Below, piece by piece: positions 1 to 29,520 of a DNA stretch of 32,000 nt. Both the position numbers and the translations under genes were made by a program. The stretch comes from Pyrobaculum aerophilum str. IM2 (GTDB lineage Archaea; Thermoproteota; Thermoprotei; Thermoproteales; Thermoproteaceae): the NCBI RefSeq assembly GCF_000007225.1, contig NC_003364.1:2070001-2102000 (forward strand), read 5' to 3'. The number at the start of each line of letters is the position of its first letter. The stretch's first letter is position 1. The notes beneath the pieces were generated by a model, which was not told the DNA's origin, searched no databases, and saw only the letters and a list, made by a program, of their open reading frames with translations.

Positions 1-159
1 GTAGGGGTCGCAACAATTCAATTACTTGTTTATACTCCTGGAAAAACTGAGGATCTAGATCCGGATTAGTGGTCTCCCTCACAAGAGCTGCCTTAACGCC
101 GTGGGGTAACTCCGTCGGCCCCGGCGTGAGAATTCTGCGTTGGGCAAAGCGTTTAAACA

Positions 160-23527: not shown

Positions 23528-23983
23528 CTAGGTCGCTAAGTGCGACAATGCTTGTGGATTATACACGAAATCCGGCGGCAGTTTCCCAACTCTTTTGTAA
23601 TACTTGACTAGGCGGTGTATTTTAGACTCCACCAGTTGCAACCCCCTCCTAGACGCCATGTCCTTTGGGTGTTCTTCTAAGTGTTTACGAATTCTCAAAG
23701 CCCTCCTGATGAGATTTAATAAGTCCTCTGGAAGCTCGTATTTAATGCCGTGTTCTTCAAGTATTTTAGTAAGCTTCTTGCCAGTAATTGGCCTCACTAG
23801 AGGAATGCCGTACTGATCCCTAAGGATAAGCCCGATTTGAGATGGTTGGAACCCGCGCCTTGCCAGCTCTACGACTAACTGCTCCACCTCCTCAGGCGTG
23901 TACTGTATCCAAGTGGGCACTGTGGGATGTGCTGGCCTTACAGAGCGCGACCTGCCCTTCTTATCGCGCGACCTATGGGGCAC
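23528..23983 (-). CDS. rps15: 30S ribosomal protein S15 (uS15; S15P/S13e)
   Basis: ...[36 protein letters not shown]...[30 protein letters not shown] is unmistakably S15P/S13e. Confidence 0.92.
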
Positions 23984-24050
23984 GGCGTTATTATTTCACA
24001 CGGTATATAAGTTTTACCAGAGGTTATATAAAGAGGGAGTAGTTTTGAAC

Positions 24051-24782
24051 GTGGCCGAACCGCCTCCCTGGCTGTGGGACTTGCCTCTGATAAATATTTA
24101 TAACACAGACGTTATTGGCTTTATGTACGACGTGCCCTTCGTGGCGACCCCCGAGGTGGTTGTTAGAAGGATGTTGCAACTCGCCAGGGTCCAGCCTGGG
24201 GAAGTGTTATACGACCTAGGGTCTGGGGATGGGAGAATTGTCATTATAGCCGCTAAAGAGTTCGGCGCCAGAGCCTTCGGCGTTGAGATCAGAAAAGACT
24301 TATTTGAGCAGTCCATGGCCAGGATTAAAGACATGGGCCTGGCCGACAGGGCCACTATTATAAACGCCAGTTTTTACGAGGTGCCTCTCACAGACGCCGA
24401 CGTGGTGACTATGTATTTATTGACGAGCGTAAACGAGAGGCTCAGGCCCAAGCTGGAAAAAGAGCTGAGACCAGCGGCGCGAGTGGTAACACACGACTTT
24501 GAAGTGCCGGGGTGGAGGCCAGCCGTGGTGGAGGAAGTGTATGAAGACTGGCGGTCTCACAAAATTTATTTGTACAAAATGCCGGGGAAGGAAATCCCCG
24601 TTCCTGGCAAGTCTATCCCGGTGAATGACAAGTGGCTTAGACAAGTGGTTGAGCTAATCGACGGTGTGAGATCTCTAGAGGATATCGCGGGGAAGCTCGG
24701 CGTTCCGATTAGAAAAGTTAGGGAGGCGGTAGAGGAGTTAAAAAAACTAGGCGTTGTGGATGAGATCAAGGTCGTTAGATGA
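24051..24782 (+). CDS. Class-I SAM-dependent methyltransferase (possibly crenarchaeal protein-lysine MTase aKMT-like) with a C-terminal winged-helix-like extension
   Basis: VPFVATPEVVVRRMLQLARVQPGEVLYDLGSGDGRIVIIAAKEFGARAFGVEI contains motif I (DLGSGDG). The tail ...LRQVVELIDGVRSLEDIAGKLGVPIRKVREAVEELKKLGVV looks like a wHTH. The ORF track starts at 23898 inside rps15. GTG 24051 (or TTG 24045) follows ttatataaa at 24024-24032. Confidence 0.8.
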   Translation: MAEPPPWLWDLPLINIYNTDVIGFMYDVPFVATPEVVVRRMLQLARVQPGEVLYDLGSGDGRIVIIAAKEFGARAFGVEIRKDLFEQSMARIKDMGLADRATIINASFYEVPLTDADVVTMYLLTSVNERLRPKLEKELRPAARVVTHDFEVPGWRPAVVEEVYEDWRSHKIYLYKMPGKEIPVPGKSIPVNDKWLRQVVELIDGVRSLEDIAGKLGVPIRKVREAVEELKKLGVVDEIKVVR

Positions 24783-25657
24783 GGGAAATTATAGAGTTGT
24801 ACCGCAAAGTCGGCGGTTTTCAAGCGCTACACGTCGCTGAGGCTTACGACGTTCTAAAAGAGGCAGTTGAAGCGGCAGATGTGCGTTTTCTGTCCTTCAC
24901 GGGGAATTTAGTCGCCACTGGGTTAAGGGAGTTTATAGCTGATGCTATACGCAGAAGGCTTTTTAACGTAGTGGTGACGACCGCTGGGGCTTTAGATCAC
25001 GATATTGCAAAGAGCATGGGGGCTGTATACGCCCCTGGCTCTTTTGATTTAGACGATGTTGATTTAGCCGCGAAGGGCTACCACAGGCTTGGGAATGTGG
25101 TGATTAAGAAAGAGGAGTACGGCCCCTTGGTGGAAAAATTTATTCTAGCGCACTGTGAGAAACTGTGGGGAAAGACGCTGGCCACATATGAACTGGCATA
25201 TTTATTAGGGGCGGAGTTGCCAGAGGACTCTATCCTCGGCGCGGCAGCGAGGGCAGGGGCAAAGGTCTTTGTGCCGGGTATTGTCGACGGGGCCGTGGGG
25301 ACAGCCCTTATGACTTGTAACGACTTGGCGAGGACTAAAAGAGGAGGATCTAGGGCTTTTATAGACGTGTTAAAAGACGAAGAGGAGCTGAGGGAAATAG
25401 TACACAACAGTAAGAAATTAGCAGCTTTAATTGTGGGAGGCGGCATTAGTAAACACCACGTAATTTGGTGGGCCCAGTTTAAGGGGGGACTCGATTACGT
25501 TGTCTATATATCAACCGCAGTGGAATACGACGGCTCGTTAAGCGGCGCCCGGCCCAGGGAGGCCATTAGCTGGGGGAAAGTTAAACCATCAGCGAAATCT
25601 GTCTTCATCTTTGCAGATGCCACGTTAGTGCTTCCAGTGCTTCTCAAAGCCCTTTGA
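24779..25657 (+). CDS. dys: Deoxyhypusine synthase
   Basis: VVTTAGALDHD, GGGISKHH and EAISWGK (catalytic-Lys region) are DHS signatures. Its ATG overlaps the preceding stop (ATGA). Confidence 0.92.
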   Translation: MREIIELYRKVGGFQALHVAEAYDVLKEAVEAADVRFLSFTGNLVATGLREFIADAIRRRLFNVVVTTAGALDHDIAKSMGAVYAPGSFDLDDVDLAAKGYHRLGNVVIKKEEYGPLVEKFILAHCEKLWGKTLATYELAYLLGAELPEDSILGAAARAGAKVFVPGIVDGAVGTALMTCNDLARTKRGGSRAFIDVLKDEEELREIVHNSKKLAALIVGGGISKHHVIWWAQFKGGLDYVVYISTAVEYDGSLSGARPREAISWGKVKPSAKSVFIFADATLVLPVLLKAL

Positions 25658-25658
25658 C

Positions 25659-26621
25659 ATGCTAATTCAAGTGCTTTCTATAGTGCTGGCATTCACGGCA
25701 GGAGTAGCCTTTGGCAAGTGGTGGGTTCAGTTCCAGAAAAGGCGGGGAATTACTTCCCGGGATGTTTACAAGGGTATTGACGGAGTGCCCAGGGCGGGGG
25801 GGCTTATAGCCGTGGCGGCCTCTGCGGTAGGATACGGCGTTGCGGCCCTTGTGGCTGAGGAGGCCGCCGTTGTTTTAGTAATATCTCTTATTATAGGTCT
25901 CTTGGGCCTTTTAGACGATTTGCGGGGAGTGAGCGAATATGTGCGCGTTTTAGTCCCAGTGTTTTTGGCCATAGGCTTGGCTAGGGCGGTGGGCCAAATG
26001 AAATTGACTGTACCAATGGTGGGCCTTTTCTACGGGGCGACTGGATGGTTTGCCGCGTTGGCGTTGCCCGTTATGACAAACGCTTTTAATATGTTGGATC
26101 CCGTGAACGGGTATTTGCCCGCTGCAAATATTATCATAGGCCTCGCCCTGGCCGCGGTGGCAGTAATTAGGGGACAGGCAGATGCGGCGTTTCTACTGGC
26201 TATTCACGTGGCAGCGTCGTTGGCCCTGTTTCTGTACAATAAGTACCCCGCCAAGACTTTTAACGGCAACGTGGGGAGCTACTTCCTAGGCGCCAGTATA
26301 TCCACAATAGCTGTTTTATACGACCTCGTGGCGTATTTAATTCTAACAGGCCTGCCCTTTGTGATAAACGGGGCGTTGATAATATTCTCCTCGGGGGGGA
26401 TAAAGGGGCGTGAGAAAATACAGAGGCCCACTGTTTTAAAAAACGGAGCGGTCTACCAAGAGTGTAACTCCCCAATCTTGTCGCTTGTGAGATTAGCCGT
26501 AGCCGACAAGCCGTTGACTGAATACGAGATATTTAAAACGCTAGTTATCTTGACGGCTATTACATCGGCGCTGACAATAGTTTTGGCCGCGTTATTGCGC
26601 CTCTTCGCACTGCCGATATGA
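25659..26621 (+). CDS. GT4-family polyprenyl-phosphate sugar-1-phosphate transferase (MraY/WecA/AglH-like)
   Basis: Polytopic membrane protein with LLDDLRG (DD motif) and NAFNMLDPVNG (NxxNxxDGxDG-like). It starts 1 nt after the dys stop. Confidence 0.85.
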   Translation: MLIQVLSIVLAFTAGVAFGKWWVQFQKRRGITSRDVYKGIDGVPRAGGLIAVAASAVGYGVAALVAEEAAVVLVISLIIGLLGLLDDLRGVSEYVRVLVPVFLAIGLARAVGQMKLTVPMVGLFYGATGWFAALALPVMTNAFNMLDPVNGYLPAANIIIGLALAAVAVIRGQADAAFLLAIHVAASLALFLYNKYPAKTFNGNVGSYFLGASISTIAVLYDLVAYLILTGLPFVINGALIIFSSGGIKGREKIQRPTVLKNGAVYQECNSPILSLVRLAVADKPLTEYEIFKTLVILTAITSALTIVLAALLRLFALPI

Positions 26622-26833
26622 AAAAGGCGCTTATCGTCGTGGGAGCGTCGTACTTAATACTGCTGGCGTTTTTTGCCATTGCGACTTGGCTCCTGCCCTT
26701 GTTAAGACAGAGAGTTCTCGGCGGGTTTACAATTGGCGATGTGGTGACAATAATAGTGGTTTTACTCTACGGGCTGTTTATATATTTAGCCGGGTTTTAT
26801 CTAGTACGTGGCAGTTGCAAGAGCGGATATTGA
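26618..26833 (+). CDS. Small membrane protein (71 aa, two predicted TM helices)
   Basis: ORF track. Its ATG overlaps the GT4 stop (ATGA). Two hydrophobic helices. Confidence 0.55.
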   Translation: MKKALIVVGASYLILLAFFAIATWLLPLLRQRVLGGFTIGDVVTIIVVLLYGLFIYLAGFYLVRGSCKSGY

Positions 26834-26954
26834 AACGCTAAAGTGTATCCGCGGAGAGAGCAATTGGGATTTTTGTCTAAGGCTTAAAAAGGCCAAGGAA
26901 GCCCTGGCGGAATTAGAAACTAAGATTGAAAAACTTCTTGAGAAACTGCCGTGA
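26808..26954 (+). CDS. Possible micro-ORF (48 aa, helical/coiled-coil-like)
   Basis: Not in the ORF track because it is under 60 aa. I translated it by hand: GTG 26808 ...ADIETLKCIRGESNWDFCLRLKKAKEALAELETKIEKLLEKLP. Its stop TGA (26952-26954) overlaps the GTPase GTG start (GTGA). It fills the only apparent gap in an otherwise gap-free operon. Confidence 0.3.
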   Translation: MAVARADIETLKCIRGESNWDFCLRLKKAKEALAELETKIEKLLEKLP

Positions 26955-27436
26955 GGAAGGCGTCTGTAGCAGTCCTGGGGGTGGGGGGCGTGGGGAAGAC
27001 GACGTATGTATTTAGACTTCTGGGCCTCTCCCTAAAGCCCAGGGCCACCCTACGCCCAGGGATATACCGCATGTATCTAAGCGATAAGGAAATTGATTTT
27101 ATCGACGTTCCGGGCCAAGTGGCCACTGAAGTGGCGAGGAATTTCGCAAAGGCGTGGACGTTTTATGTGGACTTAATGATTTATATGTACGACGTGACAG
27201 ATCAGTCCTCTCTTTACGCCATTGCGGAGCTCCACAGCGCGTTGCTTGACAGAGGGATTAGGCCTTATAGAAAAGTAGTGTTAGTGGGGAATAAGCGGGA
27301 CCTCGCCGAAGAGCTCGGCCTTTTTGTAGAAGGCGATGAGATAGCCACGGCAGTTGGCGCCTCTAAAATATATTATATATCTGCCCTTAAAGACAATATT
27401 GAGGTTTTATACAAGCCGCTGGAAGAAAACATATGA
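26951..27436 (+). CDS. Ras-superfamily small GTPase
   Basis: All G motifs are present: G1 GVGGVGKT, a G2 candidate Thr in RATLRPG, G3 DVPGQ, G4 GNKRD, G5 SAL(K). 161 aa. Confidence 0.85.
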   Translation: MRKASVAVLGVGGVGKTTYVFRLLGLSLKPRATLRPGIYRMYLSDKEIDFIDVPGQVATEVARNFAKAWTFYVDLMIYMYDVTDQSSLYAIAELHSALLDRGIRPYRKVVLVGNKRDLAEELGLFVEGDEIATAVGASKIYYISALKDNIEVLYKPLEENI

Positions 27437-28290
27437 TCCCCCGTGAGGATATTATCACAGGGATTTTAGCCACCCCATTGGTTGCCCTCCTCCAGGAAAT
27501 TGACGAGGTAAAGCCCAGCCCCAGGGTAAGGCCTCTGTTTGATCTCATTTCGGAAACGGGGGTGTTGCAGAAAAAGGGGGATAAGTACAAAAGGGGACAG
27601 GCGCCCCCGGTAGGCGAAGTCTCTCCCATTGCAGAGGCCGTGGCTGAGCTCTTTCAACACATAGTTTTTCCCTACCTAGCGGCCGACAGACAAGCGGTGA
27701 GGCTAAGCCGCGAGCTCCAGAGGGCTTTGTATGTATACACATCGGCTTACCAAGCGTTTAGAATTACGGCAGTTCAGGAGCTTTTAAAATTCGGAGGGCT
27801 CACCCTTGTGGCGGGGTGGTTCCCCTGTGCCTTTTCCTCAGAGCTAATGTCAATAGCAGGCCGCGATGTGGTAATAGTAGAAGAGCGCGAAGACATATTA
27901 ACGCTTGAAATGGACCGTCTCTCTTTAATCCCCCTAGCCCCGTCGCCTCCTGGGCGGGAGCTCGCGGCGGCTGGTTTTTACGCCTTTGAAATCACGCGGC
28001 TGGACGACTTAGAGCAAGTGGCGGAGAAATACGGCAAATTCGACACGGCAATAGTCTGTAACAGAGGTGTCGACGTGACGAGGTTAGGCGGGCTGGCAGA
28101 CGAGATTTTTTACATAATGCCCAAAGACAAGGTGATTTTTCAATTAAACGACGCGTTATTGAGAGGACTGGGCCTCACGGCCCCTGCCCAAGACGCAGAT
28201 AAGGCGCTGAGAAAAGCCGAGAGGGAGGAGCTGGGGCCTTTTGAGATATATATATATATTAAGGAGCGCAGGCACCGCCTGACAAAATAA
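27433..28290 (+). CDS. Uncharacterised protein (285 aa) translationally coupled to the small GTPase
   Basis: ORF track. Its ATG overlaps the GTPase stop (ATGA at 27433-27436). The N-terminus is wHTH-like (LFDLISETGVLQKKGDKYKRG). The C-terminal half looks alpha/beta (GRDVVIVEEREDIL...FDTAIVCNRG). No family recognised. Confidence 0.65.
   Translation: MIPREDIITGILATPLVALLQEIDEVKPSPRVRPLFDLISETGVLQKKGDKYKRGQAPPVGEVSPIAEAVAELFQHIVFPYLAADRQAVRLSRELQRALYVYTSAYQAFRITAVQELLKFGGLTLVAGWFPCAFSSELMSIAGRDVVIVEEREDILTLEMDRLSLIPLAPSPPGRELAAAGFYAFEITRLDDLEQVAEKYGKFDTAIVCNRGVDVTRLGGLADEIFYIMPKDKVIFQLNDALLRGLGLTAPAQDADKALRKAEREELGPFEIYIYIKERRHRLTK
28246..28259. repeat. (AT)7 dinucleotide microsatellite
   Basis: atatatatatatat read directly. 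It lies in the last codons of ORF 27433..28290 (EIYIYIK) and abuts the stop of the convergent HAD gene. Confidence 0.9.
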
Positions 28291-28945
28291 TCTCCACGGC
28301 CTCCTTAAACCCTATGCCGCTTGGCCCGTCTACCACTACTTTTGCCGCTTTTTTCGCCGCTGGCGTCGCGTTGCCCACGGCAAACCCCCAGGAGACGCTT
28401 AACATGCCCACGTCTACATCGCTGTCTCCCACTGAGGCCACTTGAAAACACGGCACTCCCAGCCTCTGACACAGCCACTTTACCGCAGTGCCCTTGTCGA
28501 CGCCTGCAGGCCTTACGTGTATGGCATATCCGCTAGACTCCACGACATAGCCCGGCCCCAATACGTCTCTTAAGCGCTCTACCGCGTCCTCTCTAAGCGG
28601 TATATACGCCAAGTCGTATTTCCTACACTTATTCTGATGGCTGGGCTTGACGACGCCCGTTGATAATACAAGGCGATCTACCTCTGCCATATCCCCAGAG
28701 CATAGCTCGTACGTAACGCCGTCTAGGTGGACGAGACATCCGTTTTCAGCTATGACATCTCTAATCCCCAGGTACCTGGCCACAGTTAACGCGAAATCTA
28801 GGCCGTTGGCGGTGGCCAAGACTACTCTAATCCCCGCGTCGCGCGCCCTTCTCAGAGCTAGGAGAGCCTCGGCAGATAGCTCGTATGTGTTTCTGCCAAG
28901 AGTCAGCGTCCCGTCTAAATCTACTACAAGCACTTTACACGCCAC
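28259..28945 (-). CDS. HAD-superfamily phosphatase (archaeal phosphoglycolate phosphatase / Cof-like)
   Basis: Motif I VVDLDGTLT and motif IV GDSDVDVGM. The ORF track extends to 29011, but that extension would contain the tRNA promoter. GTG 28945 lies about 24 nt downstream of minus-strand ttttataaag (plus 28964-28974). Confidence 0.8.
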   Translation of the reverse strand: MACKVLVVDLDGTLTLGRNTYELSAEALLALRRARDAGIRVVLATANGLDFALTVARYLGIRDVIAENGCLVHLDGVTYELCSGDMAEVDRLVLSTGVVKPSHQNKCRKYDLAYIPLREDAVERLRDVLGPGYVVESSGYAIHVRPAGVDKGTAVKWLCQRLGVPCFQVASVGDSDVDVGMLSVSWGFAVGNATPAAKKAAKVVVDGPSGIGFKEAVEIILSGGACAP

Positions 28946-28988
28946 GTCGCCTAAGAACAGCGCCTTTATAAAAGCTATTGTTTTAGGC

Positions 28989-29000
28989 AAAAATTTTTTA
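28989..29000 (+). promoter_or_regulatory. TATA-like box for tRNA-Asn
   Basis: aaaaatttttta is centred about 28 nt upstream of the mature tRNA 5' end (29023). Confidence 0.4.
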
Positions 29001-29022
29001 AGTGGCCGCATCCATCAACCCA

Positions 29023-29110
29023 GCCGCCGTAGCTCAGCCCGGTTAGAGCGGCGGGCTGTTAACCTAAGGCGGACACCCGTAGGTCCCGGGTTCAAATCCC
29101 GGCGGCGGCG
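29023..29110 (+). tRNA. tRNA-Asn (anticodon GUU) with a 13-nt intron at the canonical 37/38 position; CCA not encoded
   Basis: Folded by hand. Acceptor GCCGCCG/CGGCGGC with discriminator G. D arm GCTC-AGCCCGGTTA-GAGC. Anticodon stem GCGGG/CCCGT with loop CT-GTT-A[intron 29062-29074]A. Variable loop AGGTC. T arm CCGGG-TTCAAAT-CCCGG. Confidence 0.9.
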
Positions 29111-29115
29111 CTGGA

Positions 29116-29520
29116 CTACTCTGTTAATATAACTTTGGCGTATTCGGCGAGGGAGTTTCTCAACTGCGCGTCCTCTGTCTGCAAGGCAATTGCTAAAATC
29201 AGTTGGGCCAATATTGGCTTTCTATCTTCTTGCGGCAAGGCGTTTAACAAATTAGCCGCTGCCGTGGAGATTAAGCCTATGGCCTCGTCTACTTTTAACT
29301 CGATGTTTGAGAGGAGGTCTATGACGCGATCCTCGGTTTTATATAACGTGTATATAGTGGTTAGCATTAAAAAGTCCGTGTCGCTGATTTGTAGCCTCTC
29401 GGCCCACTCTTGTACTTTTACCGGGTCTGACAACATATACTGTACAAATTTTTCAAGCTCACTCCTTGGAATTTGAAACATTTTCTCCGCGTCGTTGAGG
29501 AATTTCTCAACCCAATCCAC
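29116..29520 (-). CDS. Hypothetical helical protein (134 aa)
   Basis: ORF track. The ATG at 29520 lies about 23 nt downstream of an A/T box (plus 29537-29548). Confidence 0.6.
   Translation of the reverse strand: MDWVEKFLNDAEKMFQIPRSELEKFVQYMLSDPVKVQEWAERLQISDTDFLMLTTIYTLYKTEDRVIDLLSNIELKVDEAIGLISTAAANLLNALPQEDRKPILAQLILAIALQTEDAQLRNSLAEYAKVILTE

Follow-up and report, generated by a model that had tools for sequence, protein, structure and literature searches.

The gene of a Ras-like small GTPase (161 amino acids, aa) and the gene of a 285-aa protein, hereafter called the partner, adjoin each other in Pyrobaculum aerophilum str. IM2 and form a real, conserved two-gene module. They are located in a stretch of 32,000 nucleotides (nt) of contig NC_003364.1 (positions 2,070,001 to 2,102,000), which is referred to as the window; positions are those of the window unless another locus is named. 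The GTPase belongs to Rup group 2 (Rup2), an already known family. In a confident AlphaFold model, the partner consists of a winged helix and, after two long helices, a domain with the fold of class I S-adenosylmethionine (SAM) methyltransferases. We lean, though not strongly, towards a module in which the Rup2 GTPase is combined with a dedicated adenosyl-binding regulator or effector of methyltransferase-like fold. An initial annotation, made from the sequence alone, had proposed an undescribed GTPase coupled to an unrecognisable partner. The open reading frames (ORFs), the GTGA and ATGA overlaps and the motifs G1 to G5 which it described were all recovered at their places. Of its overall interpretation, the conserved pair, the partner other than Roadblock and the guess at the fold stood up to analysis, while the undescribed GTPase, the unrecognisable partner, the co-translation in fixed ratios and a membrane link had to be given up.

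Conservation of the gene pair

Overlaps of 4 nt occur at four of the six junctions of the co-directional gene array at 23898-28290. As short overlaps are common in this compact stretch, the overlap alone is weak evidence for a link between GTPase and partner, and the pair was therefore judged by its recurrence in other genomes. In eight Pyrobaculum loci, the GT4 gene, a 71-aa ORF, a 48-aa ORF, the GTPase gene and the partner gene follow each other in this order. Spacing and the 4-nt overlap of GTPase and partner are identical in all seven loci possessing a complete GTPase gene; in the remaining one (L002), everything upstream is lost at the end of the contig. At locus L015, a GTPase 67% identical to that of the window is followed in an unrelated neighbourhood by a 245-aa partner, again with a 4-nt overlap. 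The same succession and overlap were detected in another neighbourhood at L017, where the partner is distributed over ORFs of 204 and 63 aa. This split gene (L017, 4001-4817) is probably the result of a frameshift, otherwise a pseudogene or an assembly error, and a 120-aa fragment directly upstream of the L017 GTPase resembles, by eye, the C-terminal part of a methyltransferase. A GTPase with 46% identity (L016) is separated from its partner by a gap of 32 nt and there is no ATGA overlap. At L020, the partner is only 22% identical; it is preceded, with an overlap of 4 nt, by a GTPase fragment containing DxxGQ and NKxD.

Two further arrangements were found. In uncultured relatives (L018/L019 and L021), the partner comes first and the GTPase second, with overlaps of 11 and 17 nt. 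The GTPase of this swapped-order lineage resembles a partnerless paralogue of P. arsenaticum (P0152, 59% identity). In two Thermoproteus lineages, the partner adjoins the Rup2 GTPase on the opposite strand and the convergent 3' ends of the genes overlap by 17 nt; this corresponds to an inversion of the partner gene alone, which was kept in place.

Thus, a Rup2 GTPase adjoins the partner in seven of eight distinct partner clusters examined. This adjacency spans three arrangements and no fewer than five different neighbourhoods. Because the adjacency persists in unrelated neighbourhoods, the association exceeds what is expected by chance. The partner family is essentially limited to the range of Rup2, and the single Rup2 protein of T. 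tenax is the partner-linked one. Furthermore, GTPase and partner have correlated distance matrices (r = 0.84, Mantel p ~2e-4), a result to be expected of pairs inherited together. The recurrence in varied neighbourhoods bears out the suggestion of the initial annotation that the two proteins are a conserved, presumably interacting pair. As an outcome speaking against such a pair, it had named a confident match to a known enzyme together with a loss of synteny. A match to an enzyme fold was indeed obtained, but since the synteny is retained, the idea of a pair survives.

The GTPase and its family

The GTPase is a complete, canonical Ras-type switch and a member of the Ras superfamily. It contains the motifs GVGGVGKT (G1), DVPGQ (G3), NKRD (G4) and SAL (G5). 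In pattern and numbering, the P-loop GVGGVGKT agrees with Ras G10-S17; the protein also has the catalytic Gln. An alignment of 19 sequences, comprising both orthologues and paralogues, shows LGxGGVGKTT, T33 of switch I, D52-x-P-G-Q56, G-N-K-x-D-L and S144-A145 to be invariant. The Pfam family Ras (PF00071) was matched with 33.5 bits (cut-off 21.6), Arf and MMR_HSR1 more weakly. Foldseek comparison of the AlphaFold model, which has a predicted local distance difference test score (pLDDT) of 91.3, revealed Rab3A, Rab21, Rheb and Rac as the best matches in the PDB (template modelling (TM) scores of 0.7-0.79). A lipid-anchor tail is absent.

The 161-aa ORF is 100% identical to a P. aerophilum IM2 protein. 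Rup group 2 was defined in 2015 by Wuichet & Sogaard-Andersen as a clade confined to Crenarchaeota, with at most six copies per genome (PMC4316618). Their Table S2 gives six members for P. aerophilum, of which PAE3492 alone has a length of 161 aa, and a single one for T. tenax, TTX_0725, which is also 161 aa long; conserved proteins were not found in the neighbourhoods of the group in that survey (PMC4316618). A preprint of 2024 (Vargova et al.) introduced the name Rup2, described the family as specific to Thermoproteaceae and placed it in a Rab/Ras/Rho/Ran plus RasL clade (bioRxiv 10.1101/2024.02.28.582541). The GTPase of the window is probably PAE3492, matched by length and organism only. 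Its membership in Rup2 follows from the organism, the size (a single domain of less than 240 aa), the existence of several paralogues, the Asp and Gln in G3 and the lack of MglB. The protein therefore falls within a described group (PMC4316618; bioRxiv 10.1101/2024.02.28.582541) and is not the new GTPase that had been supposed.

Assignments to other prokaryotic GTPases did not apply. For an MglA protein, G3 should read TxxGQ instead of DVPGQ, a Roadblock/LC7 (PF03259) match was absent among the neighbouring genes, and MglA structures appeared neither among the top sequence matches of the GTPase nor among its top 50 Foldseek matches. With respect to ArvA, for which ArvB (DUF2073) and ArvC (DUF2072) should follow, the protein encoded downstream of the GTPase matches no Pfam family. 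Within Pyrobaculum, the GTPases share 80-93% identity compared to 51-68% for the partners. Since the GTPase is far more conserved, this suggests that it faces more constraints than the interaction with the partner alone.

Distribution and predicted fold of the partner

A word-indexed search yielded 40 homologues of the partner; the named ones are all from Pyrobaculum and the others are metagenome sequences. By an exhaustive profile search of 1.84 billion representative proteins, only 13 partner clusters were obtained, fragments included, and every named member belongs to Pyrobaculum or Thermoproteus. In Pfam, NCBIfam and PADLOC the partner matched no family, and no relative by sequence was found in the PDB.

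The AlphaFold2 model of the partner, calculated from 19 sequences (pLDDT 85, predicted template modelling score 0.85), comprises a winged helix, two long helices and a Rossmann domain, which agrees with the order of a winged helix and a Rossmann-like domain guessed earlier. The succession of secondary-structure elements fits the seven-stranded sheet of class I methyltransferases that ends in the hairpin of strands 6 and 7. Against the PDB, Foldseek gave 184 matches at E <= 1e-3, with E values down to 4e-7. The top 50 are all methyltransferases or SAM-using enzymes, so that the partner can no longer be called unrecognisable. Among the matches are SgvM, MppJ, PrmA, COMT-type O-methyltransferases, Rv2258c, Trm5a, nicotianamine synthase and CntL. 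The two-domain COMT-type matches reached TM scores of 0.45-0.49 at a sequence identity of 8-13%. That the partner is neither a Roadblock/LC7 nor a longin protein, as the initial annotation had stated, was confirmed by the lack of a Pfam match to either of them and by the different fold of the model.

On the sequence level the comparisons were negative. Sixteen members of the partner family scanned against Pfam matched no methyltransferase family, even at E <= 10. The family profile found nothing significant among the PDB sequences, the best matches being binding motifs for flavin adenine dinucleotide (FAD) and nicotinamide adenine dinucleotide. Of these, the FAD motif of MICAL (E 0.02) was rejected along with S-adenosylhomocysteine (SAH) hydrolase (E 0.3), as both reflect the generic strand-helix-strand signature of dinucleotide binding. 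An hhalign comparison of the partner with the real methyltransferase encoded nearby gave a probability of 0.2%.

Conserved residues and possible function of the pair

Conserved residues were assigned in 16 aligned members of the family and placed on the fold by means of the secondary structure of the model, not by superposition. Invariant throughout the family, down to 22% identity, are R110, V126, G128, P131, C132, G143, P167 and C209; G43, E137, D145, E159, G201, F203, R211 and G247 are nearly so. The loop after strand 1 reads G128-W-F-P131-C132-(G/A), in the family G-W-x-P-C-G, and replaces GxGxG; the position of the second Gly of motif I is occupied by F, L, A, Y or H. Motif I is thus degenerate, and the GxGxG signature of class I methyltransferases is missing. 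By contrast, practically all of the 16 members have E or D at the end of strand 2 (equivalent to E150), the position that in class I methyltransferases binds the ribose hydroxyls. At the end of strand 3 an acidic residue (E186) is usual, and strand 4 is followed by C209-x-R211, a catalytic or substrate position in methyltransferases. Conservation within the family is highest at the pocket positions, whose residues are kept down to 22-30% overall identity. SAMTOR, whose methyltransferase fold likewise has a degenerate motif I (GSCF/YN), still binds SAM with micromolar affinity and signals into the Rag GTPase/mTORC1 pathway (PMC10883374), which shows that degeneracy of this motif is compatible with SAM binding. 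Outside the pocket, the segment E159-x-x-R-L-S-L-(I/L)-P167 leads into a loop predicted with low confidence. Conserved segments of this kind often become ordered on binding. The hairpin of the winged helix (KKGDKY) is conserved as well.

In the mechanism we favour, GTPase and partner would form a complex, and a functional and physical coupling of the two is considered likely. The low-confidence conserved loop, the KKGDKY hairpin or both are the probable contact sites. The pocket of the partner would bind an adenosyl-type ligand, with SAM or SAH as the best candidates; here, the arguments for and against such binding are evenly balanced. The partner would act as a cognate regulator or effector of the GTPase and couple its ligand or catalytic state to the cycle between guanosine triphosphate and guanosine diphosphate. 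A Ras-like GTPase with equivalents of G12, G13 and Q61 normally needs a GTPase-activating protein (GAP), and in prokaryotes the cognate regulator is typically encoded by the adjacent gene, as is the case with MglB. R110 and R211 are candidate arginine fingers. An action of the partner on the GTPase cycle, either as GAP or as guanine nucleotide exchange factor (GEF) and perhaps via one of these two residues, is a tentative proposal, and similar doubt attaches to the idea of an active methyltransferase gated by the GTPase. Rather improbable is a specific form of the regulator, a sensor of SAM/SAH or, by its two invariant pocket Cys residues, of the redox state, which binds the Rup2 GTPase directly as a GAP or GEF. 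A ligand-gated regulator following a SAMTOR-like logic and a GTPase-gated enzyme are both compatible with the present evidence; the translation genes near the pair and the fold match to PrmA, described below, favour the enzyme.

Several findings weigh against the favoured interpretation. The eighth partner cluster, P0171, the shortest (175 aa) and most divergent one, has no winged helix and is not accompanied by a GTPase on its 1.7-kb contig. Three Rup2 paralogues (P0118, P0129 and P0152), one of which (P0118) is from P. aerophilum IM2 itself, lie in unrelated contexts and have no partner-like neighbour. Owing to these paralogues, the partner has to be regarded as specific to one Rup2 paralogue lineage, plus a second, order-swapped lineage in uncultured relatives. 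Because Thermoproteus keeps the partner adjacent but inverted, co-translation is dispensable. Co-translation in fixed ratios, which had been suggested on account of the overlaps, is thus contradicted as a defining property by the opposite strand in Thermoproteus and by the swapped order in two other lineages. In addition, the partner has no sequence-level link to any methyltransferase family, and the bulky W and F in its cofactor loop could occlude the pocket.

A different function of the pair may be sought in translation. The partner would then be a SAM-using enzyme acting on rRNA, tRNA or a ribosomal protein, with Rup2 as a targeting, assembly or checkpoint factor. Parallels are the interplay of Era and KsgA, and MnmE-MnmG, a GTPase together with a Rossmann-fold enzyme possessing catalytic Cys residues. 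In four of five independent long contexts, the pair has genes for ribosomal proteins or translation at a distance of no more than approximately 4 kb. These are uS15, eS1 and deoxyhypusine synthase (DHS) in the L010 context, eS4, TrmI, ProRS and eS26 at L017, uL18 and eL19 at L018, eS8 and SRP19 at L020. The gene at 23528-23983 on the minus strand of the window was counted among these flanks; contexts of Rup2 paralogues include L40e, NFACT and Pelota. The presence of the L11 methyltransferase PrmA among the best fold matches, the invariant Cys residues and the Arg at active-site positions and the very high conservation of the GTPase (80-93% within the genus) are also in line with this explanation. 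On the other hand, the chance of such a context signal is about 0.01-0.02 only by a rough estimate made without a measured background, and the partner combines a degenerate motif I with the lack of a sequence match to any methyltransferase family. We know of no Ras-like single-domain GTPase that serves as a ribosome-assembly factor, and a role in translation is regarded as rather unlikely.

The loss of GxGxG may alternatively indicate that the partner binds no small molecule at all and is a dead scaffold (pseudoenzyme) or, in view of its N-terminal winged helix with a conserved hairpin, a DNA-binding transcription regulator controlled by the GTPase. Two precedents exist: MglA of group 3 has a link to proteins in which a receiver domain is combined with a winged helix-turn-helix (PMC4316618), and the Rossmann pseudoenzyme GFOD1 is reported to bind the small GTPase NKIRAS2 (PMC11612644). 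However, the pocket positions (the acidic residue after strand 2, C132, C209 and R211) are the best conserved ones, which is unexpected for a pure scaffold. In COMT-type methyltransferases, moreover, the winged helix mediates dimerisation and not DNA binding, and we consider this explanation even less probable than an enzyme of the translation apparatus. The least credible explanation is that the adjacency reflects inherited synteny devoid of a functional link. It would account for the block that is collinear in Pyrobaculum and Thermoproteus (methyltransferase, DHS, GT4, 71-aa ORF, 48-aa ORF, GTPase, partner and HAD hydrolase), and gene overlaps are common in this genome. But the pair persists though surroundings, order and even orientation change, so that mere synteny, already disfavoured, is very improbable. 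Compared to these explanations, the module of a Rup2 GTPase and a dedicated adenosyl-binding regulator or effector remains the one that we prefer.

Small ORFs, putative promoter and neighbouring genes

The 48-aa ORF upstream of the GTPase gene is, by its pattern of substitutions, a real gene under purifying selection. In all eight Pyrobaculum loci, it forms an open frame with a GTG start, at identities of 48-58%. The median ratio of nonsynonymous to synonymous substitution rates is 0.26 in frame versus 0.95-1.09 in the shifted frames. The NTGA overlap with the GTPase gene is kept in the eight Pyrobaculum loci and in T. tenax, and the NCBI annotation already carries the ORF as a hypothetical protein. 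The product shows the motif DIETL(R/K)CI..W(D/E)xC.RLK followed by a helix. Positional homologues of 58-61 aa in Thermoproteus can be aligned without gaps, but they have only ~20% identity and lack the Cys/Trp motif. The two Cys and the Trp are thus invariant in Pyrobaculum but have no equivalent in Thermoproteus. As intracellular disulfide bonds are a known trait of P. aerophilum, the two Cys of the protein may form one.

The 71-aa ORF is likewise conserved in Pyrobaculum and Thermoproteus. Neither small ORF was found in the other contexts of the GTPase-partner pair, and both are lineage-specific accessories or simply neighbours outside the core pair; the 48-aa protein would be an accessory limited to Pyrobaculum and Thermoproteus. 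Since the end of the GT4 gene and the beginning of the 71-aa ORF overlap, this ORF more plausibly belongs with GT4. A tethering of the module to the membrane through the 71-aa protein, as suggested in the initial annotation, was rejected on account of this overlap and of the absence of the ORF from other contexts; nothing links the module to the membrane.

Upstream of the 48-aa gene, a TATA-like box suggests an internal promoter giving a leaderless transcript that would extend from the 48-aa ORF through the GTPase gene to the partner gene. A T/A-rich box is present at the same distance from the GTG in all eight Pyrobaculum loci, while the residues encoded there differ. The box of the window is also part of the coding sequence of the 71-aa ORF, for which reason the promoter is only a putative one. 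A scan for sigma-70 promoters and intrinsic terminators was set aside because it is inapplicable to an archaeon.

Table 1. Features of the GTPase-partner locus, of rearranged pairs in related genomes and of the partner model
Feature	Locus	Position	Strand	Remark
GT4 gene (AglH/MraY-like)	window	25659-26621		stop overlaps start of the 71-aa ORF
ORF for 71-aa protein with two transmembrane segments	window	26618-26833	+	context, outside the core pair
TATA-like box TTTATATATTTA	window	26777-26788	+	putative promoter of a leaderless transcript, ~26 nt before the GTG start (26808)
Gene of 48-aa small protein	window	26808-26954	+	GTG start; stop overlaps GTPase start
GTGA overlap	window	26951-26954	+	stop of the 48-aa ORF, start of the GTPase
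Rup2 Ras-like small GTPase, 161 aa	window	26951-27436	+	GTG start
ATGA overlap	window	27433-27436	+	stop of the GTPase, start of the partner
Partner with methyltransferase fold (predicted), 285 aa	window	27433-28290	+	ATG start
Swapped-order pair	L018	4001-5270		uncultured relatives
Swapped-order pair	L021	333-1602		uncultured relatives
Inverted partner homologue	L010	5470-6312	-	Thermoproteus
Inverted partner homologue	L023	3970-4767	-	Thermoproteus
Winged helix of the partner		residues ~1-55		AlphaFold model
Two long helices of the partner		residues 65-117		AlphaFold model
Class I methyltransferase-like Rossmann domain of the partner		residues 123-276		AlphaFold model; strand-helix alternation ending in a beta-hairpin
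Conserved low-confidence loop of the partner		residues 159-179		pLDDT <50 at 163-179

Some observations concern the surroundings of the pair. In the segment 23898-25657, a DOT1/CMAS-like methyltransferase carrying a winged helix-turn-helix at its C-terminus is encoded by a gene that shares 4 nt with the start of the DHS gene; the order methyltransferase, DHS and GT4 is also conserved in Thermoproteus. Apart from a tRNA gene at 29023-29110 (plus strand; Rfam RF00005, 61.7 bits), which is flanked by the HAD hydrolase gene and a 134-aa ORF, the Rfam scan revealed no known RNA in the region. A long ORF overlapping the tRNA gene (28647-29132, plus strand) is probably spurious. The PADLOC scan gave no match to a defence system.

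Comparison with known systems

In the papers searched for PAE3492, PAE3493 and TTX_0725, no mention of them was found, and the partner family, the assignment of its fold and its linkage to Rup2 are absent from PMC4316618 and bioRxiv 10.1101/2024.02.28.582541. The GTPase shares with the other Rup2 proteins the organisms (Thermoproteaceae only), the size, the motifs G1-G5 with Asp and Gln in G3, the multiple paralogues and the lack of MglB. What separates the GTPase described here from them is that one paralogue lineage has a conserved partner. To our knowledge, the Rup2 family has never been studied experimentally; the partner is the first candidate partner and the first experimental handle for it. 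The scope is narrow, as only one archaeal family has the system, and its function is inferred.

Like MglA and MglB, the pair consists of a prokaryotic Ras-like GTPase and a cognate partner encoded by an adjacent, often overlapping gene. In contrast to MglA, which has Thr in G3, the GTPase has Asp at this position, and the partner has a predicted methyltransferase fold instead of Roadblock and is only a candidate for the role of a GAP. Should the partner regulate the GTPase, the methyltransferase fold would join Roadblock, longin, TBC, Sec7 and others as known partner types. In ArvA-ArvB-ArvC (PMC10927574), too, the gene of an archaeal small GTPase precedes conserved partner genes which are co-transcribed with it and whose biochemistry is unclear. 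ArvA, however, is Arf/Sar-like and absent from Thermoproteales, and its partners DUF2073 and DUF2072 have unrelated folds (PMC10927574); among 970 genomes of Thermoproteota it was reported in only eight, all from Korarchaeota (PMC10927574).

The best two-domain structural matches of the partner are COMT-type methyltransferases (SgvM, 8rxg; MppJ, 4kic; Rv2258c, 5f8e; plant O-methyltransferases), in which an N-terminal winged-helix or helical dimerisation domain precedes a seven-stranded methyltransferase domain. Unlike them, the partner matches neither Methyltransf_2 nor Dimerisation of Pfam, and its motif I differs. We know of no winged-helix methyltransferase of the COMT type that is paired with a GTPase.

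With SAMTOR, the partner has in common an N-terminal helical region preceding a class I methyltransferase domain and a degenerate GxGxG containing a Cys and an aromatic residue. SAMTOR is a ligand sensor in a small-GTPase pathway and not a known enzyme. However, homology of the two proteins was not detected, and SAMTOR is absent from the top 50 fold matches of the partner. Furthermore, SAMTOR is eukaryotic and acts via GATOR1-KICSTOR, without binding a GTPase directly. If the favoured interpretation is true, a hyperthermophilic archaeon would possess ligand-coupled Ras-type signalling. The sensor, if it holds, would represent a new structural class of small-GTPase regulators and a one-step, metabolite-gated Ras-type switch in Crenarchaeota, the prokaryotic counterpart of the logic leading from SAMTOR to Rag. 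With regard to the systems compared, the pair of P. aerophilum belongs to a known category, prokaryotic small GTPases with a co-encoded partner, and adds to it a new type of partner.

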